Source of the DNA: Candidatus Electronema aureum
Lineage (GTDB): Bacteria > Desulfobacterota > Desulfobulbia > Desulfobulbales > Desulfobulbaceae
DNA: 21,483 nt
Direction of reading: 5' to 3'
Assembly: GCA_004284765.1 (NCBI GenBank)
Contig: NQJD01000041.1
Span: 1-21,483 of the forward strand
Part shown: piece after piece, positions 7,907 to 19,725 of the stretch
Position numbering within the stretch: the first letter of the stretch is position 1
How the letters are laid out: the number at the start of each line of letters is the position of its first letter
Made by a program: the position numbers and the translations under genes
The notes under the pieces: generated by a model
Database searches by the model: none
The model's input: the letters and a program-made list of their open reading frames with translations, nothing else
What the model was told of the DNA's origin: nothing

Positions 7907-10627
7907 TCACCTACCCAGTAAAAGAGCGCTTCGGTCCGATATAGTCATTGGAATGATTAGCCTCACCACTATCTCCATTGCTTCTTCCTTGCTGCTGACC
8001 TCGCCGTTAAGCTGGGCCTCCAGCACCTGATTGAGCAAGGTGCGGAAGCGCGGGCCAGGCTGCAAGCCCAGTTCAAGCAAATCCTGTCCGCTGATTAACG
8101 GTCTGACATCGCGCAGATTGGTCACATAGTGAGAAACCGCCTGCTGGATGTATTTTTTCCGCGCAATCACCATGAGATAAAGCAAGCCTTCATTATCTAT
8201 ATCACGCAGCAGCCAGTAGATTTCGCTCGCCTTGAGCAAGGGGCGGCGCAGCATCTCAGCAGCAATGTGCTCGGCCTTGCTTTTCCGTTCTATAAGATGC
8301 TTGCGGTGCTTGGGTGGCACCTCAAAACGGTCGCAGAAGTGGCGCAGTTCTACGTCTCGTGAGCGACTGAACAAGGCTAAGAGGCGCACGCTCCAGAAAT
8401 CGCAATGCTTGTTGGTTTCAGGTAGATAGAGAAACCTGAACCATGAGATGGCCTTCTCCGCTTGGGTCATCATATAGGAAAAGCGGCGGTCAATCTTTAG
8501 GTTTGGGCGCAGATCAGGCCAGAGAAGCGGAAAGAGACCAAAGCCCTCCAAGCGTCGCAATGCAATGAGCGGATTGTCTTCCGAGAGAATACGACGCAGC
8601 TCATTAAAGAAACGAAGACCAGTGAACTGTTCACGCATGTGCATCTGCACTGCGTTGCGAATTAGCTTCTCCGAATGCTTGGTGATACGGAAGTCTAAGC
8701 GTTGCTCAAAGCGTATAGCGCGAAATATACGAGTAGGGTCTTCAACAAAGCTGAGGTTGTGCAGCACTCTGAGCTGACGTTCTTTCAGATCATTCTGGGA
8801 GCTGAAGTAATCAACTAAGAGACCGAAGCGATCAGGGTTGAGATGCACGGCCATTGCATTCACCGTGAAGTCGCGGCGGAAAAGATCAAGTTTGAGTGAA
8901 CTCTTCTCAACTATCGGCAGGGCAGCAGGTGCAGCGTAGTATTCTAATCGTGCAGTAGCTACATCGATCTTCATGCCGTTGAGTAACGTGACTGTAGCAG
9001 TAGCAAACTTCTCGTGTGTGCGTACAGTTGCTTGCTTTGTAGCAGCAAAGGCTTGCGCAAAGACAATACCATCTCCTTCTACGACGATATCAATATCAAG
9101 ATTGCGGGTTTGCAAGAGCAAGTCGCGGGCAAAACCACCGACCACGTAGGCACGCATCTCAACAGCGTTTGCAATTTCACCAAGCTCGCGCAGCAGGAGG
9201 ATGATTTCTCTGCCTAAGGTATCAACCATCAAGCGAGTGATGTTGCGACTACGTTCTGCTGAAGGATGCTCGTCCTGTCTGAGCAAGCTACGTGACTGAC
9301 GATGAGGATCATGCACCAGCAGATTGAGCAGATCGGTACGCGTAATCACGCCAACAATGCTTGCCTCATCATTCTCTTGACGAACAATAGGAATCAATCG
9401 TTGATGATGTTCAATAATCAGGTCTTGAATATCGGCTTGTGTCGCGTTCTCTGACAAGGTTTCGATTTCTGTACTCATGTAGTCGCCCACTGCTACAGCA
9501 CCGAGCTGATGAGCAATCGCCTTTTCCACGACCCGACGTGAGATTAAGCCAAGTAAACCCTTAGGATACGCCTTGTTTGTGTTATCGCGCACCACAGGAA
9601 GTCCGGTGAGACTATAGCGGGTAAGTAGCTCGCTGGCCTCGTTCATACTGATCTCTGGCGTAGCGGTAATCACTGGTGATGACATGATTTCTTTCGCCAA
9701 AGCCTTAGGACGAATACAGCGATACAACAAGTGCAGCAGCTCTTCTTCTGCCTCAAAGATGGTCTTGTTGGCAATCACAGCAGAGGCAGCCGAGGCATGG
9801 CCACCACCACCAAAGGCACGGGCAATTGTTCCGGCGTTGACTTCAGGAATACGACTACGGCAGATTAAATACAGTCGCTCGCCCATGCAAACCAAGGAAA
9901 AGACCGCATCTAAATTCTCCATGACCATCATTCTCCGCACTAAAGCAGAAAAGTCGTCAGCATAGTCAGGCAACGTTAGCCTGCTGATTGTTACTTGTAT
10001 CGACTGAATGGTATAGACGGCTGAATGCTTGAGCAGCTGGCTGAGAAGTGAAACCTGTGCGGCAGAAAGATCGTGGCTAACAAAGTGATTCACCACATTG
10101 AGCTTGGCTCCTTGTGCTAACAACCACGCTGCTGCTTGCAGATCAGCGGGCGTAGTGCCCGTGTAGAGAAAGGAGCCGGTATCCTCATGAATACCGATGC
10201 TCATCAGCGTGGCTTCGTCCGCAGTCAGGATGATGTTTTGCTCTTGAAAGATGCTGACAAAGATAGAAGTGGTGGAACCAAGCAGTTCTACATGCTCGAA
10301 GTCGCCGCGTAGATCACCGGGCGCATCGGGGTGGTGGTCGTAGAGGTGAAGCTCTAAGCCGGGGTTGCACAGGCATTCTTGCAGCCGATCAAGGCGGTCA
10401 GGCTGACGGGTGTCCACCACGATCAGGCGACGGACGGAAGTTAGGTCAAGGTTCTTGAGCTTCTTGAAATCGTATAGATTGCGGAGATCAGCAGAAAGGA
10501 ACTCGCCTATCCGCCGCTCGGCAGCACCAGCAAAGACCAGCACCGCGCCGGGATAGAGCTTTCGGGCCGCGATCATTGAGGCAAGGCCGTCAAAGTCGGC
10601 GTTGACGTGGGTGGTGATGATGTCCAT
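7907..10627 (-). CDS. Multidomain DHH/DHHA1 phosphoesterase - CBS pair - poly(A) polymerase/CCA-adding (tRNA nucleotidyltransferase) family protein (906 aa)
   Basis: DHH motifs HVNADFDGLAS, VVDT and LYDHHPD are present. The DHHA1 motif is GGGGHASAASA. The CBS region contains IMSSPVITATP and IPIVRQ....IVGVITRTDLL. The nucleotidyltransferase head is YVVGGFARDLLL...LDIDIVVEG, followed by the RRDFTVNAMA and FVEDPTRIFRAIRF blocks of the PcnB/Cca family. Confidence 0.8.
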   Translation of the reverse strand: MDIITTHVNADFDGLASMIAARKLYPGAVLVFAGAAERRIGEFLSADLRNLYDFKKLKNLDLTSVRRLIVVDTRQPDRLDRLQECLCNPGLELHLYDHHPDAPGDLRGDFEHVELLGSTTSIFVSIFQEQNIILTADEATLMSIGIHEDTGSFLYTGTTPADLQAAAWLLAQGAKLNVVNHFVSHDLSAAQVSLLSQLLKHSAVYTIQSIQVTISRLTLPDYADDFSALVRRMMVMENLDAVFSLVCMGERLYLICRSRIPEVNAGTIARAFGGGGHASAASAVIANKTIFEAEEELLHLLYRCIRPKALAKEIMSSPVITATPEISMNEASELLTRYSLTGLPVVRDNTNKAYPKGLLGLISRRVVEKAIAHQLGAVAVGDYMSTEIETLSENATQADIQDLIIEHHQRLIPIVRQENDEASIVGVITRTDLLNLLVHDPHRQSRSLLRQDEHPSAERSRNITRLMVDTLGREIILLLRELGEIANAVEMRAYVVGGFARDLLLQTRNLDIDIVVEGDGIVFAQAFAATKQATVRTHEKFATATVTLLNGMKIDVATARLEYYAAPAALPIVEKSSLKLDLFRRDFTVNAMAVHLNPDRFGLLVDYFSSQNDLKERQLRVLHNLSFVEDPTRIFRAIRFEQRLDFRITKHSEKLIRNAVQMHMREQFTGLRFFNELRRILSEDNPLIALRRLEGFGLFPLLWPDLRPNLKIDRRFSYMMTQAEKAISWFRFLYLPETNKHCDFWSVRLLALFSRSRDVELRHFCDRFEVPPKHRKHLIERKSKAEHIAAEMLRRPLLKASEIYWLLRDIDNEGLLYLMVIARKKYIQQAVSHYVTNLRDVRPLISGQDLLELGLQPGPRFRTLLNQVLEAQLNGEVSSKEEAMEIVVRLIIPMTISDRSALLLGR

Positions 10628-10724: not shown

Positions 10725-10757
10725 TTCATCGTGCTTTCATCCTCCATCTGGTAATTT
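10725..10757 (+). promoter_or_regulatory. Promoter P-A1: direct repeat TTCATC-N5-TTCATC plus extended -10 (TGG TAATTT)
   Basis: The sequence is TTCATCgtgctTTCATCctccatcTGGTAATTT, with hexamers at 10725-10730 and 10736-10741 and TGG-TAATTT at 10749-10757. The same architecture and spacing recur at 11230 and 11731. It ends 74 nt upstream of the ATG at 10831. Confidence 0.65.
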
Positions 10758-10830
10758 TTAAAAAACAAGGACAGGGCTGCATAGCTTTAGCTCTCAATCA
10801 ACAAACGGTATCACGAAAAGGAAATTCATC

Positions 10831-11145
10831 ATGAACAAACTAACAACAGGATTAATCGCCAGTATTTTGTTTACATTCATGGCGTTTAGCTCGGCAAGTG
10901 CAGGTAGGGATGACAGATATGAGCATCATGAACGTCATGATTACCGTAACGACAGGCATGATAATCCATATTCATCCAGTGTCTATATCCATCGTAATAA
11001 TGGTAGATACAGGGATCGTGACCGGCATGGATATAATCACAATCGGTACAGCCACAACGACAACTACCGTAGGAGCCATGACGGTTACAGGCAACACAAC
11101 AATATTGGCTATGGCCACGATATGCATAAACGATATGAGCATTGA
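10831..11145 (+). CDS. Secreted low-complexity His/Arg/Asp/Tyr/Asn-rich protein, family A (A1, 104 aa)
   Basis: Signal peptide MNKLTTGLIASILFTFMAFSSASA is followed by an 80-aa chain. By hand count it has 13 His, 15 Arg and 11 Tyr, with no Cys and almost no aliphatic residues. The RBS is AAAGGAAA. The signal peptide and the HER(H/Y)(D/E)Y..N....NPY motif are shared with A2. Confidence 0.7.
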   Translation: MNKLTTGLIASILFTFMAFSSASAGRDDRYEHHERHDYRNDRHDNPYSSSVYIHRNNGRYRDRDRHGYNHNRYSHNDNYRRSHDGYRQHNNIGYGHDMHKRYEH

Positions 11146-11229
11146 CGATAGAAATTCTCATTATCATCTGGAGGCATAAAACAGGCATCAGCAAATCAAG
11201 CAAGCCAGTCGTTAAAAAAAACATATTCA

Positions 11230-11262
11230 TTCATCTTCTGTTCATCTTCCTTCTGGTAGATT
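11230..11262 (+). promoter_or_regulatory. Promoter P-B1: direct repeat TTCATC-N5-TTCATC plus extended -10 (TGG TAGATT)
   Basis: The sequence is TTCATCttctgTTCATCttccttcTGGTAGATT, with hexamers at 11230-11235 and 11241-11246 and TGG-TAGATT at 11254-11262. It ends 63 nt upstream of the ATG at 11325. Confidence 0.65.
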
Positions 11263-11324
11263 AAAGACAGAAGGAAAGAGAACAGTAGCACAACTAACAA
11301 ACCACCAAAAAAGGAGACCTCATC

Positions 11325-11672
11325 ATGAAACGCGCATTCTTTCTACTGGCAGCTGCTATCACCTTATCCGCCGGAGCAGCAGAAGCAAGTCGGCATGAAT
11401 ACGGATACGGATACGGATACGGCAGAGGATATGGCTACGAAAGCAGGGCAAAATTTTATGGCACGGTTGATGCCATGCCTCAGACTGGTTTTAACGGTGT
11501 ATGGATGGTGAACGGTCGGCAGGTTATGATTACTCCCAGCACCAGAATTAAAGAAAAGTACGCCAGACTTGCTCTTGGTTCCTATGTTGAAGTGGAAGGA
11601 TATCATTCCAATGGCGGCTTCACGGCGTATGAAGTCGAAGTGAAAGGCGGAAGACAGTACGGCTACCGGTAA
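11325..11672 (+). CDS. Secreted protein, family B (B1, 115 aa): YG-repeat linker plus one ~65-aa DUF5666-like domain
   Basis: Signal peptide MKRAFFLLAAAITLSAGAAEA is followed by the linker SRHEYGYGYGYGRGYGYESRA. The domain is KFYGTVDAMPQTGFNGVWMVNGRQVMITPSTRIKEKYARLALGSYVEVEGYHSNGGFTAYEVEVKG. The RBS is AAGGAG. The DUF5666 assignment rests on pattern recollection, not a search. Confidence 0.75.
   Translation: MKRAFFLLAAAITLSAGAAEASRHEYGYGYGYGRGYGYESRAKFYGTVDAMPQTGFNGVWMVNGRQVMITPSTRIKEKYARLALGSYVEVEGYHSNGGFTAYEVEVKGGRQYGYR
11399..11422 (+). repeat. Perfect hexanucleotide tandem repeat (ATACGG)x4 inside B1, encoding the YGYGYGYG tract
   Basis: Read directly: four exact in-frame tandem copies at 11399-11422. 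Confidence 0.9.
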
Positions 11673-11686
11673 GCCGTCTCTACGAA

Positions 11687-11716
11687 CAGGAGGGATTGGG
11701 AAAAAAATCTCTCCTG
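11687..11716 (+). terminator. Hairpin after B1 (weak terminator candidate)
   Basis: CAGGAGGGA (11687-11695) pairs with TCTCTCCTG (11708-11716) with one G-U pair and a 12-nt loop. A-rich sequence follows rather than a U-tract. Confidence 0.3.
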
Positions 11717-11730
11717 AAAAATAAGGTAGT

Positions 11731-11763
11731 TTCATCTTCTGTTCATCTTGCATTTGGTAAATT
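11731..11763 (+). promoter_or_regulatory. Promoter P-A2: direct repeat TTCATC-N5-TTCATC plus extended -10 (TGG TAAATT)
   Basis: The sequence is TTCATCttctgTTCATCttgcattTGGTAAATT, with hexamers at 11731-11736 and 11742-11747 and TGG-TAAATT at 11755-11763. It ends 54 nt upstream of the ATG at 11817. Confidence 0.65.
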
Positions 11764-11816
11764 AGATAATAAGCAAGGAACAGCAGCTTTCATCCAAAGA
11801 CAAAAGGACTCTTATC

Positions 11817-12158
11817 ATGAAGAAGATTGGATTAGGACTCATTGGCAGTGCTTTGTTTGCATTCATGGCAGTTAGCTCGGCACAGGCAAGTAAGCATGAG
11901 GGGTACGAAGATCACGAGCGGTATGAATACGGCAACCGTTATTACAACCCCTACGGATATACCAATTATGATTACAACAATCAGTACCGTAATCATGAGC
12001 AGTATGAGCATAGCAACAATAGGTATAATACCTACAATCCTTACAACGGCACGTATGGTTCTGTCTATAACAATGGCTATACGTACAACAACGCCTCCAA
12101 TGCTTATGGTTACAACAATAACTACAGGCATCATGAGCGGTATGAATACCACCACTAA
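11817..12158 (+). CDS. Secreted low-complexity Tyr/Asn/His-rich protein, family A (A2, 113 aa)
   Basis: Signal peptide MKKIGLGLIGSALFAFMAVSSAQA is homologous to that of A1. By hand count the 89-aa mature chain has 23 Tyr and 19 Asn. It is bracketed by His/Glu motifs, HEGYEDHERYEY at the start and YRHHERYEYHH at the end. The RBS is AAAGGA. Confidence 0.7.
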   Translation: MKKIGLGLIGSALFAFMAVSSAQASKHEGYEDHERYEYGNRYYNPYGYTNYDYNNQYRNHEQYEHSNNRYNTYNPYNGTYGSVYNNGYTYNNASNAYGYNNNYRHHERYEYHH

Positions 12159-12189
12159 TATCGCCATCTGAGTAGGCACAGAAATATCG

Positions 12190-12226
12190 TCACGGCTCTG
12201 AAGATGGCCACTCTTCTGAGCCGTGA
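12190..12226 (+). terminator. Long hairpin after A2 (probable transcript end or stabiliser)
   Basis: TCACGGCTCTGAAGA (12190-12204) pairs with TCTTCTGAGCCGTGA (12212-12226). This is a 15-bp stem with one central T-T mismatch and a 7-nt loop. No U-tract follows. Confidence 0.45.
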
Positions 12227-12351
12227 TACAAGAACAGCTTCGTGACGGGTATTTCCTGTATATAGAAAAGATGCAATTTATCATTTTCTACATCATGCTT
12301 TTCAAACATCCGCATGATGTGCAGCGTACATCATAAAAAGGGGAAAAAACT

Positions 12352-12666
12352 ATGAAACGTGCATTATTTCTACTGGCCGCAGTCTTGGCATTGTCAACTG
12401 GGCCAGCACAGGCAGATGACGATGATGACAGAGAACACCATACCAGCAGTGCTAAATTTTATGGCACAGTCGAAGCATTGCCTCCGTCAGTCAGGAATGG
12501 TATTTGGTGGGTAAATGGTAGGGAAGTGATAGTGAGTCCCAGAACGAAGATAAAAGAAAAGCGCGGCAGCATTGCTGTCGGAGCTTATGTTAAAGTGGAA
12601 GGCTATCTCTCCGGCATTGGATTAGCAGCTGATGAAATTGAAATCAAGGGCAGTAGAAGACACTAA
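12352..12666 (+). CDS. Secreted protein, family B (B2, 104 aa): poly-Asp/His linker plus one DUF5666-like domain
   Basis: Signal peptide MKRALFLLAAVLALSTGPAQA is followed by the linker DDDDDREHHTSSA. The domain is KFYGTVEALPPSVRNGIWWVNGREVIVSPRTKIKEKRGSIAVGAYVKVEGYLSGIGLAADEIEIKG. The RBS is AGGGGA. Confidence 0.75.
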   Translation: MKRALFLLAAVLALSTGPAQADDDDDREHHTSSAKFYGTVEALPPSVRNGIWWVNGREVIVSPRTKIKEKRGSIAVGAYVKVEGYLSGIGLAADEIEIKGSRRH

Positions 12667-12775
12667 ATCCTGATTGAAAAAATTCAGCAGATCAACTAAA
12701 TTTACATTTTGCTTCTTGATTAAGAAACAAGGTGGGCAGCACAACAACCCGATTGTCCAAAAGGAGGACATCATC

Positions 12776-13378
12776 ATGAAAAAGGCATTTCTTTCGTTGG
12801 CAGCAATTTTGGCATGTGTATCAATAACGACAGCAGCTCAAGCCAGTCGGGATGAATATTATGAGCGTGGTGAATACGGCGAGCGTTATGAAGGACGCGG
12901 CTACGATGACGGTGGCAGACGCTATGAAGAAAGCAAATTTTACGGCACAGTAGAAGCAATACCACAAGGCGGTCGGGATGGCATTTGGCGAATCAGCGGC
13001 CGCGATGTTGTGGTCAATCCGAATACGTTTATTAAAGAAGAATACGGCAGAATGGGAATCGGCGCACAAGTTGAAGTAAAAGGTGGCGGTGCTCCTTTCA
13101 TGGCGTATGAAATCGAAGTCAAGAGCGGCAGCAGAGCAATGGGCAACGCTCCTGTGATGAATGGTGGAATAAAGTTTTATGGTCCCATTGAGGCTATGCC
13201 CCAAGGTGGTTTTCTCGGCACTTGGCGGGTTGGTGGTCGGGACGTCCTTGTCACCCAGAACACCTTTATCAAACAAGAATACGGCAGAGTTGCCCCTGGT
13301 GTGCAAGTGGAGGTGAAAGGTAGCGGTACTCCTTTTGTTGCCTATGAAATTGAAGTCAAAGGTGGTACCATGCGCTGA
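12776..13378 (+). CDS. Secreted protein, family B (B3, 200 aa): Glu/Tyr/Arg/Gly linker plus two tandem DUF5666-like domains
   Basis: The start ATG at 12776 follows the RBS AAGGAGG (12761-12767). Signal peptide MKKAFLSLAAILACVSITTAAQA is followed by the linker SRDEYYERGEYGERYEGRGYDDGGRRYEES. Domain a runs KFYGTVEAIPQGG...AYEIEVKS and domain b runs KFYGPIEAMPQGG...AYEIEVKG. Confidence 0.75.
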   Translation: MKKAFLSLAAILACVSITTAAQASRDEYYERGEYGERYEGRGYDDGGRRYEESKFYGTVEAIPQGGRDGIWRISGRDVVVNPNTFIKEEYGRMGIGAQVEVKGGGAPFMAYEIEVKSGSRAMGNAPVMNGGIKFYGPIEAMPQGGFLGTWRVGGRDVLVTQNTFIKQEYGRVAPGVQVEVKGSGTPFVAYEIEVKGGTMR

Positions 13379-13391
13379 TTTTTTCAGTGAG

Positions 13392-13420
13392 CCTACAAGA
13401 GTAATTTTTACTCTTGTAGG
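13392..13420 (+). terminator. Perfect 13-bp hairpin after B3
   Basis: CCTACAAGAGTAA (13392-13404) pairs with TTACTCTTGTAGG (13408-13420) around a 3-nt loop. It is preceded by TTTTTT and not followed by a U-tract. Confidence 0.4.
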
Positions 13421-13457
13421 CAGAACTTCAATGATCACGAGCAAGGAAAAAGGTATC

Positions 13458-13811
13458 ATGAGGAATAGATTATTTTTGTTTGCCGCAGTTTTTGTTGTTT
13501 TTACAGGGGCAGCTCAGGCCGAAGAAAGCGGTCAAAAAAATCAGCTCAAGCAGCATCATTACCAGCCAGGTCAAGGATACGAGCAGGAACCTGAATATAA
13601 ATTTTCTGGTCGAATCACAAAAATTCCTGAAAATTCCTTGTCAGGTATCTGGGTTATTAATAATGATCGCCAAATTGTTGTTTCACCAACCACGAACATC
13701 AAGCAGGAGAATGGTAAGGCGATTGTCGGTGCCTCTGTTGCAGTGAAAGGTGTGCTGCAAGGAAGCAACTTCATGGCCACTGAAATTGAGGTTACGACTG
13801 ACATCCCTTGA
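13458..13811 (+). CDS. Secreted protein, family B (B4, 117 aa): divergent DUF5666-like domain
   Basis: Signal peptide MRNRLFLFAAVFVVFTGAAQA is followed by the linker EESGQKNQLKQHHYQPGQGYEQEPEY. The domain is KFSGRITKIPENSLSGIWVINNDRQIVVSPTTNIKQENGKAIVGASVAVKGVLQGSNFMATEIEV. Confidence 0.7.
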   Translation: MRNRLFLFAAVFVVFTGAAQAEESGQKNQLKQHHYQPGQGYEQEPEYKFSGRITKIPENSLSGIWVINNDRQIVVSPTTNIKQENGKAIVGASVAVKGVLQGSNFMATEIEVTTDIP

Positions 13812-13865
13812 TCACCGCTTGTTTCTCTCTCAAAAGCACCTTAATTCATTCAATCAGCAAATATT

Positions 13866-14471
13866 ATGATGAATAATCAGCAAGATGAAATTCAAAATGG
13901 CAACGCTCGTCTTGCCAATCCCATCCGCTTTTGGCATATAGCGATAATTGTCCTCGCCTTGGCCGCTTTGTTGACCGGCGATTTGGCAGATGACTACAAG
14001 AAGGTTGAACATGTCGGTTTCCTTTTGCACAGCAACATCGGCGTGGCCGTATTCCTCACCCTCTGCTTCTATGTTGCCTACGGACTTTTCGGCCCACAGG
14101 AATTCCGTCTCTCGCGCTGGTTCCCTTTCACCAAAGAACGGCTGCGGCAAACTGGCAAGGATTTGGTCATGCTCACTAAATTCAAGCTGCCAGAACACAA
14201 GCGGCGGCAGGGATTAGCTGGATTGGTGCAATTTTTCGGCATCTTAGTCTTTTCTTGGCTTGCGACCACCGGCACCTTGATGTATTTTCTCATAGAGCCG
14301 GGGAGCAAGGCGCAGGGTTTCGTCCGCGCGGTCAAAGAGGCCCATGAAGTTGGCACTGCGCTGATTCCAGTTTATCTGGCTTTGCATATCGGAGCGGTGC
14401 TTGCACATTCGCTGACTGGACAGCACGTTTGGAAGGAAATCTTTTTCTTCAAAAATAGCACGATTGAATAA
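13866..14471 (+). CDS. Membrane b-type cytochrome, cytochrome b561 / Ni-Fe hydrogenase cytochrome-b-like family (201 aa, about 4 TM)
   Basis: There are four hydrophobic helices with His at helix ends in the family-typical layout: RFWHIAIIVLALAALLTGD, GFLLHSNIGVAVF, and KEAHEVGTALIPVYLALHIGAVLAH. The length is about 200 aa. The assignment rests on pattern recollection. Confidence 0.6.
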   Translation: MMNNQQDEIQNGNARLANPIRFWHIAIIVLALAALLTGDLADDYKKVEHVGFLLHSNIGVAVFLTLCFYVAYGLFGPQEFRLSRWFPFTKERLRQTGKDLVMLTKFKLPEHKRRQGLAGLVQFFGILVFSWLATTGTLMYFLIEPGSKAQGFVRAVKEAHEVGTALIPVYLALHIGAVLAHSLTGQHVWKEIFFFKNSTIE

Positions 14472-14486
14472 GTAGCAAGGGAAGCA

Positions 14487-15161
14487 ATGAAAATTCTGGT
14501 GGTGGAAGACGACAAGCGGTTAGCTGCCTTAGTGAAACGAGGGCTGGAGGAACATGCCTTTGTCGTTGATCTGTGCTATGACGGCGAAGAAGGGCTGTAT
14601 CAGGCCGAAACTTCTCCTTATGACGCGATTGTACTGGATGTGATGATGCCTAAGATGGACGGCTTCACTGTACTACGCAAGCTGCGCGAGCAGGGCAGAG
14701 AAGTACCGGTGATTATGCTCACTGCCAGAGGCGAGGTGGAAAATCGGGTCAAAGGGCTGAACACCGGCGCGGATGATTATTTAGCCAAACCCTTTGACTT
14801 TGCTGAACTGATTGCCCGACTGACCGCAGTGATTCGGCGGAACAAGGGACAAGCTGCCTCGCAGCTGTGTATTGCTGACCTCCACATTGATCTGAACGCT
14901 AAAACCATCGGCAGAGCGGGTATCGATATCCCGCTTTCCGCCAAAGAATACGCCATCCTTGAATATCTCGCCCTGAACAGAAATCGGGTAATTAGCCGCA
15001 CTGAGCTGTCTGAGCATGTTTATGACATGAATTTCGATCTCGACAGCAATATCATTGATGTTTATATCAACCGCTTGCGCAGAAAAATCGATAAAGATCG
15101 TGATCAGCCGCTGATTCAGACCAGAAGAGGCGAAGGCTATATCATTCGTGATGAGGCATAA
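14487..15161 (+). CDS. OmpR/PhoB-family response regulator, CusR/CopR-like subfamily (224 aa)
   Basis: The receiver domain shows MKILVVEDD, phospho-acceptor AIVLDVMMP, MLTAR and AKPF. The winged-helix C-terminus VYDMNFDLDSNIIDVYINRLRRKID...IQTRRGEGY closely resembles the CusR block WDMNFDSDTN.IDV...RLR.KID. Confidence 0.85.
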   Translation: MKILVVEDDKRLAALVKRGLEEHAFVVDLCYDGEEGLYQAETSPYDAIVLDVMMPKMDGFTVLRKLREQGREVPVIMLTARGEVENRVKGLNTGADDYLAKPFDFAELIARLTAVIRRNKGQAASQLCIADLHIDLNAKTIGRAGIDIPLSAKEYAILEYLALNRNRVISRTELSEHVYDMNFDLDSNIIDVYINRLRRKIDKDRDQPLIQTRRGEGYIIRDEA

Positions 15162-15163
15162 TC

Positions 15164-16573
15164 TTGGTACGTTCGATCAAAGGCAGGCTGCTCCTCTGGA
15201 TTTTCATCTCCATGACTGCTTTATTTGCCGCGTTAGGTTACGCGTTGCATTTTAAGCTCCATTACGTGGTGGAAGATTCAGTAGATAAGATGCTTCATGC
15301 CAGCTTGCAGTTTGTGAAAGGTTTAGTCCATAGTCATGATGGAAAAAATATCGAATGCGAATCGAATGAATTTATGCAAGGTGACTACATCACCCCTGAT
15401 TCAGGCCATTATTACCAAGTCTTCCTTAATGGAGAACTACTCGCAGCAGCAGATTCTCTGTTTGATAAAAATTTTAATCTCACTCCCGGCAAAGCAGAAT
15501 CGTACAATGCCAAAGCTCAGGAGTGGCTGTATCATTCAATAGGTCCTAACGACGAACCACTGCGGGTTATTCAGCATGATTTTGTCTATATGGATACGCC
15601 AGTGCGTGTAATTGTTGCCGAAAATATCAGCGAAAGCCTGCTTCTTATCCATCAGCTTATCAATTACTTCTTGCTTATTGTGCCGGTGATGATTGTTTTG
15701 ATCGGCATGATCAGCTTGGTCATTGCTGAGGTTTCACTGCGGCCTGTGCAGCATTTTTCCGCTGCCTTAGAGAAGATCAGCCACAAAAATTTAGAAGAGC
15801 GGATTCCAGTAAATAAACAAGCACGAGAGCTGCGCAGGCTGGCGGAGAAGTTCAATTCATTGCTGGAGCGACTGCACCGCGCTTTCGAGGCAGAAAAAAA
15901 TTTGCTCGGCGATGCTGCCCATGAGTTGAAAACCCCGCTGGCAGTCATCAAAGCGGAATGTGACATCGCCTTGCAGCGAGAACGAACAGCGGAGCAACAC
16001 GCGGCCAGCTTGAAAAACGTGCGGGAAGTGACGAATGGAATGCTCGGTCAGATCAACGGACTCCTGACCCTGACTCGGCTTGATTCTGGCTTGCTCGATG
16101 CTTCAGCCTTTGAACCGATTTCACTCACTGATTGCGTGGAGGATGCGGCCTTGTTAGCCAAGTCTTTAGCTACAAAGAAGAACGTTGCTATCAGTTCCTC
16201 ATTGAACGGTGAACTGAGCGTACTGGGTGATCAAGACAGTTTGACTGAAGCGGTGCTGAACTTAGTTGAAAATGCGATAAAATACAATCATCCCGGTGGA
16301 TTTGTTGCCGTGGAGTTAAACCGCCGGGACAACAAAGCGGAAATCAAGGTCAGCGACACCGGCATCGGCATCAGCGAGCAGGATCAAGAGCGCATCTTTG
16401 ACCGTTTCTACCGCTCTGACGCTGCCCGCAGTAGCCAAGACGGCAGCGGTCTTGGTTTAAGCATTGTGCAAGCAATTGTGCAAGCCCATCACGGCGAGAT
16501 TGCTGTTGAAGCGCAAAGCACCGGTGGTAGTCGTTTCACGATCACACTGCCTTTGGTGACAAAGACCGTTTGA
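15164..16573 (+). CDS. Sensor histidine kinase (469 aa): two TM helices flanking a ~130-aa periplasmic domain, then HAMP, HisKA and HATPase_c
   Basis: TM1 is LLLWIFISMTALFAALGYAL and TM2 is YFLLIVPVMIVLIGMISLVIA. The H-box is AAHELKTPLAVI, the N-box is LVENAIKYN, G1 is DTGIGI and G2 is GSGLGLSIV. The TTG start at 15164 lies 2 nt after the response-regulator stop, and its N-terminus SIKGRLLLW is typical of this kinase class. Confidence 0.85.
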   Translation: MVRSIKGRLLLWIFISMTALFAALGYALHFKLHYVVEDSVDKMLHASLQFVKGLVHSHDGKNIECESNEFMQGDYITPDSGHYYQVFLNGELLAAADSLFDKNFNLTPGKAESYNAKAQEWLYHSIGPNDEPLRVIQHDFVYMDTPVRVIVAENISESLLLIHQLINYFLLIVPVMIVLIGMISLVIAEVSLRPVQHFSAALEKISHKNLEERIPVNKQARELRRLAEKFNSLLERLHRAFEAEKNLLGDAAHELKTPLAVIKAECDIALQRERTAEQHAASLKNVREVTNGMLGQINGLLTLTRLDSGLLDASAFEPISLTDCVEDAALLAKSLATKKNVAISSSLNGELSVLGDQDSLTEAVLNLVENAIKYNHPGGFVAVELNRRDNKAEIKVSDTGIGISEQDQERIFDRFYRSDAARSSQDGSGLGLSIVQAIVQAHHGEIAVEAQSTGGSRFTITLPLVTKTV

Positions 16574-16576
16574 ACA

Positions 16577-17413
16577 TCACATTCCACAGGCTTCTCGTTC
16601 AGAATCGGTCAGCTCGATAATAGTGGGGTTTTCGCCGCAAACTGGGCAATCGGGCCGTTTTCTCAGGATGATCCGGCGAAAATTCATGGTCTTGGCATCA
16701 AAGCTCAAGAGGCTATCGGTGAGCAGTGTGCCTGCACCGGTAATAAATTTGAGGGCTTCGGCAGCCTGAATGGTACCGAGCATCCCGGCTACTGCGCCCA
16801 GCACTCCGGCCTGTGAGCAGCTTGGTACGGATTTGGCGGGCGGCGGTTCGTGAAAGCAGCAGCGATAGCAAGCGGTGCGACCGGGCAGCACGGTCATCGT
16901 CTGGCCGTCAAAGCGGAGTATGCCGCCGTGCGAGAAAGGAATACCCGCCAGTACGCAGGCATCATTGATGAGAAATTTAGTGGCAAAATTGTCTGTGCCA
17001 TCGATGACAAAATCATATTGCCGGATGATGTTATCGATATTCGAGGCATCCAAGTAGAGCAGCCACGGCTCCACCTTAACTTCTGGGTTGATGGCCTTCA
17101 GCTTGGCCTCTGCTGATTCGACTTTAGGCCGGTTGAGATCAGCGGTAGTATGAATGATCTGCCGCTGAAGATTGGAGATATCAACTACATCAGCATCAAC
17201 CAAACCAATAGTTCCCACACCGGCAGCGGCAAGATACAACGAAACAGGCGAGCCAAGGCCGCCTGTTCCCACCACCAGCACTCTGGACTGTAGCAACTTA
17301 ATCTGACCTTCTGGCCCCACCTCTTTGAGAATCAGGTGACGGCTGTAGCGGTCCATTTGCTCGTCGGTCAGATTCATTGAAGCATCTGCTGTTCCGAATG
17401 TGCTGCTGGGCAT
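16577..17413 (-). CDS. thiF: ThiF/MoeB/HesA-family adenylyltransferase (E1-like), 278 aa from ATG 17413 (alternative start at 17377)
   Basis: YSRHLIL, the nucleotide loop VLVVGTGGLGSP, and the block LVDADVVDISNLQRQ are present. Two Cys pairs (CYRCC and CPVC) form the family zinc site. A ThiS-like GG protein lies directly upstream. ThiF versus MoeB cannot be resolved by eye. Confidence 0.75.
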   Translation of the reverse strand: MPSSTFGTADASMNLTDEQMDRYSRHLILKEVGPEGQIKLLQSRVLVVGTGGLGSPVSLYLAAAGVGTIGLVDADVVDISNLQRQIIHTTADLNRPKVESAEAKLKAINPEVKVEPWLLYLDASNIDNIIRQYDFVIDGTDNFATKFLINDACVLAGIPFSHGGILRFDGQTMTVLPGRTACYRCCFHEPPPAKSVPSCSQAGVLGAVAGMLGTIQAAEALKFITGAGTLLTDSLLSFDAKTMNFRRIILRKRPDCPVCGENPTIIELTDSEREACGM

Positions 17414-17465
17414 AATTAGTTTTTGTTGAAGAATAAAAATAAATGTCAGTGTGCGGGCCGTCTGA

Positions 17466-17672
17466 TCAACCTCCGGCCATAAAATAAAGCAGGTCAACTT
17501 GGTTACTGTCGCCAACCATCGTGTCGTGATAAGAACAACGATGCACGATTTCGCCATCGATCTGCACTGCTACCATTTCTGGTGACGGCACTTGCTCCAT
17601 CTCCAGCAGACCAGCTACGGTCAGGTTGGCCGCGTTGATGAAGCGCGGTTCTCCGTTCAGCCTGATTTCCAT
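17466..17672 (-). CDS. thiS: ThiS-family sulfur-carrier protein (68 aa, C-terminal Gly-Gly)
   Basis: The sequence MEIRLNGEPRFI....TVAGLL.......MVAVQIDGEIVHR..........NQVDLLYFMAGG* has the ThiS length, the NG motif and a terminal GG. The RBS is GGAGGAG. Confidence 0.75.
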   Translation of the reverse strand: MEIRLNGEPRFINAANLTVAGLLEMEQVPSPEMVAVQIDGEIVHRCSYHDTMVGDSNQVDLLYFMAGG

Positions 17673-17960
17673 AATTTTTCTCCTCCAGAAAATTAATGGC
17701 TTAGGTAGGCATCCTCTTCTTTCTCCAGTATAATCACATTGATTACAAGGACATATATTTACTACTTAACAATGCGGCAGACGTGAAGTCAAGGGAAAAA
17801 GAGTGGTTCCTTGATTATCTTTCTGCCGAGCAGGGGAACAGTTTGCTGCCTGTAAAGATACAATTTATGATACTCTGAAGCAAGAGGGATTGCAATATTT
17901 GAACGGATTGTCCTGCTGATCTGCCCGGCGGCCAACCGGGCAAGGCGGAGAACAGCGCAA

Positions 17961-18695
17961 TTACTGAAGTACCGCGCGGGCCTTGAGCGACTGCGGCGGA
18001 CGATTGTTTGGTCCCCCCAGCAATTCACTGAACTGTTTGACCTGTGCTTCTGATGTCGCAACCTGATTTTTCAGGATCAGCCAGAGTACGCCTTCAGTAC
18101 AGGGCGGCGTGGTCAGTGAGCCAGTGACCCGGTAATACTCCCGATTTTCCGGGAGCAGTTTGTCCGCCCGTACCTGAGTAGCCATGCCTACCTCTTGACC
18201 GGCTTCTGTTGGCATTTGCTGCCAGAGCTTTTTCAGAGCGAAATTTTCCTCGCCCAAGTTGTACAGAACTGAAATTACTGCAAGCTGGCCGTTGGCATCA
18301 GCATGGACGAACTGAGCTTCCAGCGGGAAGCTCTCGCCATCGATCTGATGTTCGCTGGGTGTGTGAAAATCAATCTGCTTCAGCTCGTAGCTCCTGCCGC
18401 CCAACGTGATAAACGAACCCGCTGAGTAATCAGCTTGAACCGTGCTGTTTGTCCGCCGCAGCTTGGTAACTAACCCACTGTAGTCAAAAGAAATCGGCTC
18501 AAGTTCGGCCTCAATAAAACCGGTCAGGTTGACCGGCGACTGATTGGCCCTCTGAGCGCAGAGCGCAAAAGATGGATCGAGTGCGGCCCAGTGTTCTGGG
18601 CCGTTTTCACCGGCATAGCCCCATTGTCCCTCGGCAGCGCACGCAGTTCCCGCCAGCAGAACCAAGGCAGCAGCGGCGGGCAGCATTTTTTTCAT
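17961..18695 (-). CDS. Secreted alpha-carbonic-anhydrase family protein with a non-canonical metal triad (244 aa)
   Basis: Signal peptide MKKMLPAAAALVLLAGTACAA is followed by the alpha-CA blocks WGYAGENGPEHW, NQSPVN, PSEH and GSLTTPPCTEGV. The zinc-ligand positions read KQIDFH (family FHFH) and EAQFVH (family EAHFVH). The RBS AGGAGAAGGA lies 22 nt after the gap stop. Confidence 0.85.
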   Translation of the reverse strand: MKKMLPAAAALVLLAGTACAAEGQWGYAGENGPEHWAALDPSFALCAQRANQSPVNLTGFIEAELEPISFDYSGLVTKLRRTNSTVQADYSAGSFITLGGRSYELKQIDFHTPSEHQIDGESFPLEAQFVHADANGQLAVISVLYNLGEENFALKKLWQQMPTEAGQEVGMATQVRADKLLPENREYYRVTGSLTTPPCTEGVLWLILKNQVATSEAQVKQFSELLGGPNNRPPQSLKARAVLQ

Positions 18696-18717
18696 ATCCT
18701 TCTCCTGATACCTTCTT

Positions 18718-19725
18718 TTATAACGCCTTGTTGGCATTCATGTGCAGGACGAGGTCCAGCATCCGATTGGAATAGCCCCATTCGTTGTCGTACCAGCTCA
18801 TCACCTTGACCGAAGTACCCATGACCTTAGTGCAGAGTCCGTCAACAATGGAGGAATGCGGATCGCCCTGAAAATCGATAGAAACCAACGGTTCCTCGCA
18901 GTAGCGCAAGAATCGTCCGGCGGCTTCTTGGAGAGCCTTGTTCACCTCTGCAACCGAGGTTTCTTTCTCCACTTCCATCACCACATCGACCAGTGAGACA
19001 TTGGGAGTTGGCACCCGCACGGCCAAGCCATCAAACTTGTTTTTCAACTCCGGGATAACCAAGGCTACCGCTGAGGCCGCACCGGTCTTAGTCGGAATCA
19101 TCGACAACCCAGCTGCCCGCGCCCGCCGCAGGTCAGAATGAGGGAAATCAAGCAGTCGTTGATCACCGGTATACGCATGAATGGTGGTCATCAGGCCGCG
19201 TTTGATGCCAAAATTGTCCAAGATCACTCGCGCTACCGGAGCAAGGCAGTTGGTGGTGCAGGAGGCGTTAGAAATCACGTGATGCGTGGTGGGATCATAT
19301 TCGTCTTCATTCACGCCCATAACGATAGTTTTGACATCCGCTCCCTTGGCCGGAGCAGAGATGATCACCTTGGCCGCGCCTGCATCGATGTGGGCCTTGG
19401 CAGTCTCACTGCTGCAAAAGATACCCGTGCATTCGAGGACATATTCCACGCCCATCTCGCCCCAAGGGATGTCAGCCGGATTGCGATGGTTCGTGATCGG
19501 AATTTCCTTGCCGTTGACCGTGATACTGCGCTCGCCCGCTTTGATGTCAGCGGCAAACACGCCCATGACTGAATCGTATTTAAGCAAATGGGCGATGGTC
19601 TTGACATCGGTAAGATCGTTGATGCCTGCCACCTCAATCTCTGCAAAGTCTTTATCTTGGCTGATCGCCCGAAAAATATTTCTGCCGATCCGGCCTAAAC
19701 CGTTGATGCCGATTTTAATGCTCAT
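18718..19725 (-). CDS. gap: Type I glyceraldehyde-3-phosphate dehydrogenase (335 aa)
   Basis: INGLGRIGRN forms the Rossmann N-terminus. The active site is SNASCTTNCLAP. The C-terminal block is WYDNEWGYSNR. The start ATG at 19725 follows the RBS AAGGAG. Confidence 0.92.
   Translation of the reverse strand: MSIKIGINGLGRIGRNIFRAISQDKDFAEIEVAGINDLTDVKTIAHLLKYDSVMGVFAADIKAGERSITVNGKEIPITNHRNPADIPWGEMGVEYVLECTGIFCSSETAKAHIDAGAAKVIISAPAKGADVKTIVMGVNEDEYDPTTHHVISNASCTTNCLAPVARVILDNFGIKRGLMTTIHAYTGDQRLLDFPHSDLRRARAAGLSMIPTKTGAASAVALVIPELKNKFDGLAVRVPTPNVSLVDVVMEVEKETSVAEVNKALQEAAGRFLRYCEEPLVSIDFQGDPHSSIVDGLCTKVMGTSVKVMSWYDNEWGYSNRMLDLVLHMNANKAL

Follow-up and report, generated by a model that had tools for sequence, protein, structure and literature searches.

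In ygiW-qseBC and ygiW-firRS, a BOF-family periplasmic OB-fold protein is encoded beside a QseBC-type two-component system, in ZraP-ZraSR, CpxP-CpxAR, and HbpS-SenSR a periplasmic or extracellular accessory protein is induced by, and acts on, its own two-component system, and in yceI-yceJ the gene for a periplasmic protein is paired with a cytochrome b561 gene. The locus considered here belongs to Candidatus Electronema aureum, a cable bacterium from freshwater (Desulfobulbaceae), and lies on contig NQJD01000041.1, of which a stretch of 21,483 nt was analysed in whole (the window). At positions 10831–16573, all on the + strand, it contains in order A1, B1, A2, B2, B3, B4, a cytochrome b561, a response regulator, and a sensor histidine kinase, where A and B denote two families of small secreted proteins. 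As read from these genes and their relatives, the cluster appears to be a two-component-controlled periplasmic stress regulon assembled from uncharacterised parts and including a lineage-restricted protein family, and its function is tentatively, and with somewhat less than even confidence, read as autoregulated cation stress response and homeostasis in the periplasm, directed at hard metal cations and above all at iron, with quinone-linked redox chemistry supplied by the cytochrome and the ligand deduced indirectly. The first-pass annotation of the window had proposed an undescribed two-component-linked periplasmic system, and this description holds: none of the three outcomes that it had named as refuting was observed, family A falls in no Pfam or NCBIfam family, family B belongs to the uncharacterised DUF5666, and the neighbourhood is conserved.

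Two further groups of described systems are relevant for their signals and binding sites. The PmrA box consists of two XTTAAY hexamers, 5 nt apart, in place of the -35 element (PMC10570014), and the ColRS/VgrRS systems of Pseudomonas and Xanthomonas sense an excess of Fe3+ or Zn2+ via a periplasmic ExxE motif in a proposed dimer-shared site (PMC4074579). The Fe3+/Zn2+ sensing of ColS has been assigned to such ExxE motifs, which are also cited as iron-binding in the PmrA/PmrB system, FTR1, and HbpS (PMC4074579).

Compared with these systems, the cluster shares parts of the logic of each. Like ygiW-qseBC and ygiW-firRS, it places the gene for a small secreted OB-type barrel next to an OmpR-family two-component system that probably controls it, and the N-terminus of its kinase has a borderline match to 2CSK_N (Pfam), whereas B1–B4 have no BOF match at E ≤ 1, YgiW is outside the top 50 fold hits, and the cluster adds a cytochrome b561, the tail-only family A, motif-rich disordered tails, and as many as six genes for the barrel. 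With enterobacterial PmrA/PmrB it has in common XTTAAY-type hexamers 5 nt apart over the -35 region (PMC10570014) and an ExxE-type motif in the kinase, but the regulator is not a PmrA equivalog (185.1 bits against a cut-off of 330), the box in cable bacteria is TTCATC, and the outputs are periplasmic proteins and a cytochrome rather than lipid A-modifying enzymes. The conserved periplasmic ExxE motif is likewise a point of resemblance to ColRS/VgrRS, one of motif rather than of demonstrated orthology with the kinase, while the content of the regulons is unrelated. As in CusRS-CusF and PcoE/SilE, a heavy-metal-type two-component system is the best match and is accompanied by a periplasmic OB barrel and disordered, sponge-like proteins; unlike CusF, the barrel lacks the His/Met/Met/Trp site and any Pfam match to it, leaving a resemblance of fold alone, and unlike PcoE/SilE, A1 and A2 have no Pfam match and contain 0–1 Met and 0 Cys per mature protein. 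Small secreted proteins under an adjacent sensor also recall ZraP-ZraSR, CpxP-CpxAR, and HbpS-SenSR, the last with an ExxE motif for iron (PMC4074579), though their folds and families are unrelated to those of the cluster. The cytochrome resembles FdnI, CybB, and YceJ (PF01292) in its four-helix bundle, four His ligands, the H-x13-H in its last helix, and the neighbouring gene for a periplasmic partner, and differs from them in matching no NCBIfam equivalog or solved sequence and in having as partner a DUF5666 protein with no evident redox cofactor. Despite the like logic, the system thus does not appear to be a member of ygiW-qseBC, PmrAB/ColRS, CusRS-CusF, or ZraPSR, and the only memberships that its sequences support are in DUF5666, PF01292, and the OmpR and HisKA superfamilies. 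PcoE/SilE and YgiW, to which the first-pass annotation had likened the small proteins, are therefore analogies and not relatives, as it had itself supposed, given the lack of Pfam matches, the absence of Cys, and the near absence of Met.

The nine co-directional genes reported previously for this part of the window were recovered at the same place both as open reading frames (ORFs) and in public gene calls. For B3 and B4, the starts used here (12776 and 13458) are the ATG codons of the public genome record, with a purine-rich ribosome-binding site before each; in the mechanical ORF list both proteins are longer and start with TTG. Direct reading of the translations agrees with the signal peptides assigned to all six small proteins, each with a Lys/Arg start, a hydrophobic stretch, and one of the quoted cleavage motifs (SASA/G, AEA/S, AQA/S, AQA/D, AQA/S, and AQA/E, the slash marking the cut). 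The gaps between B4, the cytochrome, the regulator, and the kinase are 54, 15, and 2 nt, and the layout suggests several strongly inducible small transcripts plus a downstream unit expressed at a lower level.

Family B corresponds to Pfam DUF5666 (PF18914), a domain of ~60 residues, an assignment that had been put forward for checking and with which the public annotation agrees. All four B proteins are above the gathering score of 27 bits, each with a signal peptide and a tail: B1 (11325–11672, 115 aa; 42.3 bits, E 9e-11) has a Tyr/Gly-rich tail and one barrel, B2 (12352–12666, 104 aa; 36.0 bits, E 9e-9) a DDDDDREHH tail and one barrel, B3 (12776–13378, 200 aa; 49.9 bits, E 4e-13, in two stretches) two barrels and an ExxE-rich tail (EYYE, ERGE, EYGE, ERYE), and B4 (13458–13811, 117 aa; 28.4 bits) one barrel and a HHYQPGQGYEQEPEY tail that is kept across Electronema. 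The five copies of the domain counted earlier in four genes are thus all DUF5666. Of these copies, B4 adjoins the cytochrome on its upstream side, which reproduces the ancestral layout, and B2 has a ratio of nonsynonymous to synonymous substitution (dN/dS) of 0.07 against its orthologue in L007, the most closely related contig. Modelled with AlphaFold2, mature B1 is a five-stranded barrel with a core predicted local distance difference test (pLDDT) score above 90 and the first 17 residues disordered, so that family B is, as modelled, a secreted OB-like barrel of five strands preceded by a disordered tail. Within the barrel, K, F, G, P, R, T, I, V, A, and E occur invariantly and W almost so.

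A Foldseek search of the model against the PDB returned generic OB-fold matches, with CusF, cold-shock domains, RPA, and the OB domain of CcmE scoring about equally and no barrel match at E ≤ 1e-3, and the family B profile searched against all solved sequences had IF-1 as its best match, a weak one (E 0.08). These results bear on the possibility of a Cu(I)/Ag(I) resistance system of the CusRS-CusF and PcoE-SilE type, with DUF5666 as a CusF-like chaperone and family A as a sponge. In favour of it are the CusF structures at ranks 3 to 9 of the fold search (E 5e-3 to 1e-2, template modelling score 0.5–0.65), the 222 bits that the CusR model gives on the regulator, and, in Candidatus Electrothrix marina, a gene for outer-membrane efflux and a broken adaptor gene that come after a box-driven DUF5666 gene. 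Given that the generic OB folds score equally well, that CusF_Ec, SilE/PcoE, and BOF all lack a Pfam match, that neither His nor Met is conserved in the barrel, that the A proteins and B tails are devoid of Cys and all but devoid of Met, and that the CusR score is far below its 420-bit cut-off, this explanation is extremely unlikely. A haem chaperone similar to CcmE was also considered and rejected, as it has no Pfam match, the CcmE OB domain ranks 24 in the fold search, and HxxxY, the haem motif of CcmE, shows no enrichment, with 19 observed where 17.8 were expected.

DUF5666 appears in the literature as table entries that give no function, one of which ranks a DUF5666 protein within the top 20 by abundance when Dissulfuribacter thermophilus disproportionates thiosulfate. 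In Chloroflexota the domain occurs as 4–6 tandem repeats, together with cohesin and dockerin domains in three proteins, which indicates a general extracytoplasmic building block. The description of the small proteins as two unusual families therefore applies to family A, and not to family B, which is a widespread extracytoplasmic module. The three Chloroflexota proteins (L030, L031, and L033, from Ardenticatenales-type genomes) each combine 4–5 DUF5666 repeats with two cohesin domains and one dockerin domain, which suggests that they are surface scaffold proteins.

Family A consists of A1 (10831–11145, 104 aa) and A2 (11817–12158, 113 aa), both secreted proteins of low complexity, and in outline the family is a string of Tyr, Asn, and Gly with interspersed motifs. 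Mature A1 is 19% Arg, 16% His, 14% Tyr, 12% Asp, and 12% Asn, with one strict RYEH-type motif near the N-terminus and KRYEH at the C-terminus, while mature A2 is 26% Tyr, 21% Asn, and 9% His, with three [E/D]xYE[Y/H] motifs placed near the N-terminus, in mid-chain, and at the C-terminus. Matches to the WGxxGxxG family (NF041742) were rejected because they begin in the signal peptide and score 16.5 (A2) and 13 bits (A1) against a cut-off of 35. Three relatives of A2 came from a word-indexed search over 5.8 billion protein clusters and eight relatives of family A from a profile search over 1.84 billion representative proteins, and all of those with readable context are located in the same cluster of a Ca. 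Electronema-type genome. Each of the ten Electronema-type loci that could be read far enough upstream has at least one family A copy, and none was seen in the Electrothrix loci examined. A1 is missing from L007, and A2 compared with its orthologue there has a dN/dS of 0.30 with no indels, which indicates that family A is coding and under purifying selection. In other Electronema genomes, a 55-residue lipoprotein-like member of the motif family, with a signal peptide ending in Cys followed by HGYGHDERHEHDDDDRYEYRNGSHRNHERYEHRY, lies between the A genes (L009:11490-11657, L010:11426-11593, L008:700-867); this version was not seen in the window.

The distribution of family A is relevant to a possible role in nickel or in the conductive fibres, in which the His/Tyr-rich proteins would keep Ni (or Cu) in reserve for the nickel bis(dithiolene) fibres, supply it to them, or be part of their sheath. 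The host is a cable bacterium, and it is only in cable bacteria, whose fibres contain Ni, whose junctions accumulate Cu, and whose fibre proteins are unidentified (10.1101/2025.10.10.681601), that the tails and family A have expanded; other His-rich adaptations to Ni, such as the loop of RcnA, are present in these organisms (PMC11247825). The link to the fibres is weakened by the failure to find family A in the Electrothrix loci examined, though both genera make fibres, and by the occurrence of the core module in non-cable bacteria. Further, His makes up merely 5% of the B tails and 9% of A2, and published searches for periplasmic Ni proteins did not flag the genes of the cluster (PMC11976967), such that a role of this kind is very unlikely.

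What is conserved in family A is the short [E/D]xYE[Y/H] motif, which occurs 1–4 times per protein, often after His or Arg-Asn-His and in most of the proteins near the N-terminus, in mid-chain, and at the C-terminus. Across 17 A proteins, 52 such motifs were observed against 0.9 expected from composition (0 of 2000 shuffles), and nearly all Glu residues of the family are inside them. The tails of the cable-bacterial B proteins have the same make-up (18% Gly, 17% Tyr, 16% Glu, 13% Arg, 5% His; one Met and no Cys in 889 residues) and are enriched in E-x-[Y/G]-E, with 43 observed in 40 tails against 7.5 expected; the Tyr share over A proteins and B tails is 14–29%. At the level of DNA, the motif region of A2 is 76% identical to the B3 tail over 41 nt. 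Based on the shared enrichment, the common make-up, and this identity, family A looks like a tail-only relative of the B proteins and a common origin is probable. Two families are therefore present, as had been described, but they are not independent, since the motif of one recurs in the tails of the other.

Compositions of this type would also suit a self-assembling matrix, in which the A proteins and B tails act as sticker (Tyr, Arg) and spacer (Asn, Gly) chains that build up a periplasmic gel, condensate, or coating, cross-linked through bead-like DUF5666 barrels, and in which metals or pH only modulate assembly. The Tyr and Asn content of A2, the Arg and Tyr content of A1, and the Gly, Tyr, Glu, and Arg content of the B tails agree with this, as do the two barrels of B3 and the Chloroflexota scaffold proteins in which DUF5666 repeats join cohesin and dockerin. 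However, it is the short acidic motifs that are conserved and not the spacers, and a sensor-inducible system fits a stress response better than a constitutive structure, so this explanation is decidedly improbable.

The cytochrome gene (13866–14471, 201 aa), of which an identical copy is present on chromosome OW818638.1 (2.94 Mb; GCA_942492785.1), encodes a member of PF01292 (67.3 bits against a cut-off of 30.1, E 2e-18) with four predicted transmembrane helices, in agreement with the b-type cytochrome of about four helices noted earlier. His24, His55, His160, and His174 are invariant in 33 sequences, with a spacing of 14 between the last two, and the AlphaFold2 model is a four-helix bundle (pLDDT 87) whose best solved fold, though weak, is FdnI (1kqf_C), the dihaem quinone-reducing subunit of formate dehydrogenase-N. 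It is a dihaem b561-family membrane protein. No NCBIfam equivalog and no sequence match to solved structures at E ≤ 1 was found for it, and on these same grounds membership in CybB was rejected.

PF01292 includes the CybB-type b561 proteins, and an oxidative or redox-stress regulon could be built from HprS-like sensing, a CybB-like cytochrome passing electrons between superoxide and quinone, and Tyr/His-rich proteins as sacrificial radical sinks that would protect the periplasm of cells reducing oxygen there. In keeping with this, HprR is the third-best model for the regulator (208 bits), Tyr is abundant in the A proteins and B tails, and all cable bacteria encode a cytochrome b561 whose role has been called unclear (PMC12093952, 2025). 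The best fold of the cytochrome is FdnI and not CybB, no solved structure matches it at E ≤ 1, the module is also found in lineages labelled Thermodesulfovibrio/Nitrospiraceae and Desulfobulbaceae, the ExYE motifs rather than Tyr alone are conserved, and Met, the usual scavenger of oxidants, is almost absent; an oxidative-stress function is, on balance, unlikely.

Upstream of the small genes, a promoter shared by three of them had been reported, and exact TTCATC-N5-TTCATC direct repeats were found on the + strand at 10725, 11230, and 11731 (three sites against 0.19 expected, with 0 of 100 shuffles reaching three). The three copies form a 34-nt repeat family: the first (10725–10758, upstream of A1; matrix score 40.5 bits) continues from the repeat into TGGTAATTT, an extended -10-like element, the second (11230–11263, upstream of B1; 53.7 bits) is kept in L007 and other Electronema loci, and the third (11731–11764) precedes A2 (51.4 bits). 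The matrix scan found no more boxes upstream of B2, B3, B4, or the cytochrome. In total, 27 cable-bacterial sites fit TTCATCTT-N3-TTCATCTT-N3-TCTGGTAnnnT, each of them ahead of an A or B gene and on its coding strand, and the non-cable loci each have exactly one TTTAAT-N5-TTTAAT site with TGnTAnnAT, just upstream of a DUF5666 gene. The box is therefore a direct repeat of hexamer-N5-hexamer over the -35 region, TTCATC in cable bacteria and TTTAAT elsewhere, and its repeats are conserved and change together with lineage. The TTTAAT boxes of non-cable bacteria have the format of the PmrA box, of which TTCATC is the cable-bacterial derivative. From adjacency and co-conservation, it is most likely the adjacent regulator that binds the box. 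A bacterial-type TTTAAT-N5-TTTAAT box with a two-domain DUF5666 gene was also observed on a contig binned as a Hydrothermarchaeota archaeon (L025, WAQR01000207.1), which is probably mis-binned.

Three hairpins follow small genes on the + strand: one after B1 (11687–11716) with an 11-bp stem and no U tract (-18 kcal/mol, z = -3.7), which is a candidate attenuator or 3'-end stabiliser, a long one after A2 (12189–12226; z = -2.9 for a 102-nt stretch), and one after B3 (13391–13421) with a 14-bp stem (z = -4.5). A simple terminator scan returned nothing meaningful between the genes, and the hairpins after A2 and B3 likewise have no U tract.

The response regulator (14487–15161; Pfam Response_reg and Trans_reg_C) belongs to the OmpR/PhoB family and the sensor kinase (15164–16573) has a periplasmic domain followed by HAMP, HisKA, and HATPase. 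Over their full lengths, the best NCBIfam models are the heavy-metal families TIGR01387 for the regulator (252.1 bits against a cut-off of 279.2) and TIGR01386 for the kinase (251.2 bits against 292.55). The earlier assignment as CusR/CopR-like is thus borne out in so far as heavy-metal families score best, but the scores are below their cut-offs and the box and sensor motif are more like those of PmrAB/ColRS. Regulator orthologues are 59–86% identical with an almost invariant recognition helix. The periplasmic domain of the kinase contains E66-x-x-E69 and P-x-SGHYYKV, and all 14 of the 14 kinase orthologues keep P-x-SGHYYKV, two His, and E-x-x-[E/D].

The recurrence of the neighbourhood in related genomes, the lack of which the first-pass annotation had named as refuting, was strong. 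DUF5666, cytochrome, regulator, and kinase genes occur in this order in Ca. Electronema V4, TJ, PJ, KV, JM, and halotolerans and in related metagenome-assembled genomes (MAGs), with the module present in ten Electronema-type loci; in Electronema JC, DUF5666 genes alone were detected. The order is also present in three further lineages (L019, L040/L041, and L042), and parts of the module occur in the Nitrospirota loci L021, L023, and L024. Among metagenome contigs with close orthologues of the cytochrome (about 46% identity or more; L043–L054), 11 have upstream sequence; in 10 of these DUF5666 directly precedes the cytochrome, and the remaining one has DUF5666 ORFs at other places on its contig. 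More distant cytochromes (about 46% identity or less) have unrelated neighbours, with neither DUF5666 nor a two-component system, and are therefore uninformative about the module. Judged by gene order across Electronema, the further lineages, and the close cytochrome orthologues, the conserved core is box, DUF5666, and cytochrome b561, often followed by regulator and kinase, recurring in cable bacteria, other Desulfobulbaceae, and Nitrospirota, and Electronema appears to have multiplied the promoter, the DUF5666 genes, and family A. All of the parts listed in the first-pass annotation are thus present, but the core consists of DUF5666 and cytochrome b561, with family A as a genus-specific addition.

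Gene order also bears on whether the DUF5666 proteins, with the A proteins in Electronema, are accessory sensors that tune the kinase in the manner of CpxP, ZraP, HbpS, and YgiW rather than bulk buffers, a model that can coexist with the cation response favoured here. The OB-fold periplasmic protein beside the two-component system in ygiW-qseBC is a precedent; across phyla, DUF5666 genes share a transcript with those of the two-component system or adjoin them, with a box that the system most likely controls itself, and an ExxE-type motif is common to the kinase and the A/B tails. The tightest pair, however, is DUF5666 with the cytochrome and not with the kinase, as Electrothrix YB6 (three DUF5666 genes and a cytochrome) and L023 (a DUF5666-cytochrome pair) have no adjacent two-component system, and up to nine small genes with separate strong promoters point to a bulk product and not a stoichiometric partner. 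Such a sensing role as the main function is rather improbable.

A hard or borderline cation is preferred to Cu(I)/Ag(I) or an oxidant as the signal because of the heavy-metal-like two-component system, the ExxE motif of the sensor, the ExxE motifs of its outputs, and the dearth of Cys and Met; it is this absence of Cys and near absence of Met in the A proteins and B tails that disfavours Cu(I)/Ag(I) chemistry. Fe(III) is classically bound by Tyr, His, and carboxylates. Under the proposed cation response, the periplasmic domain of the kinase would detect a periplasmic cation via its ExxE-type acidic motif and the nearby His and Tyr, and the phosphorylated regulator would bind the direct repeats and act, like PmrA and PhoB, as a class II activator of transcription. 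The box would have been copied three to four times in Ca. Electronema, with each copy driving its own small gene, and because of these multiple boxes, and of the stable hairpins that follow three of the small genes, induction could flood the periplasm with DUF5666 proteins and tail-only family A proteins. Their disordered segments, rich in Tyr, Glu, Gly, Arg, and His and carrying [E/D]xYE or ExxE, may then bind and buffer hard or borderline cations, with Fe(III)/Fe(II) as the first candidates and Zn, Mn, and Ni as possible others. The cytochrome b561 could couple the quinone pool to the periplasmic side and so change the redox state of the bound metal or remove radicals, a step suggested by gene linkage and the haem ligands. 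A parallel exists in the L040 operon, whose multihaem cytochrome c ends in a His/Asp/Tyr-rich tail.

Several results weigh against this interpretation. The regulator and kinase, by the curated cut-offs, appear to be near relatives of the heavy-metal subfamilies and not members, the sensor domain has no relative among solved structures, and the recognition helix of the regulator does not covary with the box variant (TTCATC or TTTAAT), a comparison that gives no support since the helix is nearly invariant. Any metal site would be confined to the tails, since none of His, Met, and Cys is conserved in the barrel; A1 is net basic (isoelectric point 9.3), which is odd for a cation binder, and the non-cable relatives have short B tails with no ExxE enrichment, so the core module may not need motif-rich tails. 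The motif enrichment itself shows conservation and not chemistry, because ExxE is short and the counted sequences are related. Finally, no expression or functional data for the genes of the cluster were found in the cable-bacteria literature, including a supplement.

A wider version of the cation response, which we regard as unlikely, holds that DUF5666-cytochrome b561 is an unrecognised quinone-linked periplasmic module that buffers metal, most likely iron, and changes its redox state under a sensor of its own, and to which Electronema has added a genus-specific, inducible ExYE matrix that protects or services the fibre-bearing periplasm. If so, the matrix could counter the Fe2+/Fe3+ fluxes and pH swings that cable bacteria make in freshwater sediment, and if the iron or metal reading is true, cable-bacterial physiology would be linked to the sediment iron cycling that these organisms drive. 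The cable-bacterial periplasm houses the conductive fibres and the oxygen-reducing machinery, and few of its proteins are known. The analysis defines a likely regulator-binding site, identifies a genus-specific expansion into strongly promoted, motif-bearing disordered proteins, and places the cytochrome b561 of cable bacteria in a conserved, sensor-controlled operon with a secreted partner, and experiments on the cluster would give the first functional handle on the widespread extracytoplasmic DUF5666.

Other gene contexts were observed around relatives of the cluster. In Ca. Electronema sp. V4 (L009:5920-9793) and a related metagenome contig (L010:5650-9796), the cluster is immediately preceded by a small hypothetical gene together with genes for a 4Fe-4S protein, an NrfD-type membrane protein, and tetrahaem-type cytochromes c, and this set fits the candidate alternative complex III termed 'pACIII' (PMC11976967); Ca. 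E. aureum has a poly(A)-polymerase-family gene upstream instead. The non-cable operon with the multihaem cytochrome c (L040:9282-10568, also L041), whose C-terminal tail ends in …YRDSGYNYYDHDAGGHHDEDHDKHDDD, has between the b561 and the two-component system a second weak PF01292-like protein, a methyltransferase, and an amino-acid permease. In Candidatus Electrothrix marina (L015:9486-13156), the box-driven gene encodes a two-domain DUF5666 protein with no cytochrome or two-component system nearby; after it come an outer-membrane efflux gene of the NodT family and an RND-type adaptor gene, the latter divided between two frames in the MAG.

Within the window, no Rfam families were found, and antisense or out-of-frame ORFs on the - strand across the A and B genes (10886–11230, 11364–11753, 11832–12284, 12821–13459) were rejected as genes and read as probable by-products of repetitive, biased codon usage, since they lack a family match, a signal peptide, and any argument from conservation. 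Positions 1–2542 contain genes for an ATP-binding cassette (ABC) transporter ATPase, a low-molecular-weight phosphatase, and phoU, probably a phosphate-uptake locus, with a G+C content of 58–60% compared with 43–50% in the cluster. The divergent neighbour of the first promoter box (7907–10627, - strand) encodes a 906-residue protein with DHH, CBS, and poly(A)-polymerase/CCA-adding domains and adjoins the cluster in L007 too. On the other side (16577–18737, - strand), ThiF/MoeB-like and ThiS-like genes converge on the kinase gene, beyond which is an alpha-type carbonic anhydrase with an N-terminal signal-like sequence, and the same genes flank the cluster in Ca. Electronema sp. V4.

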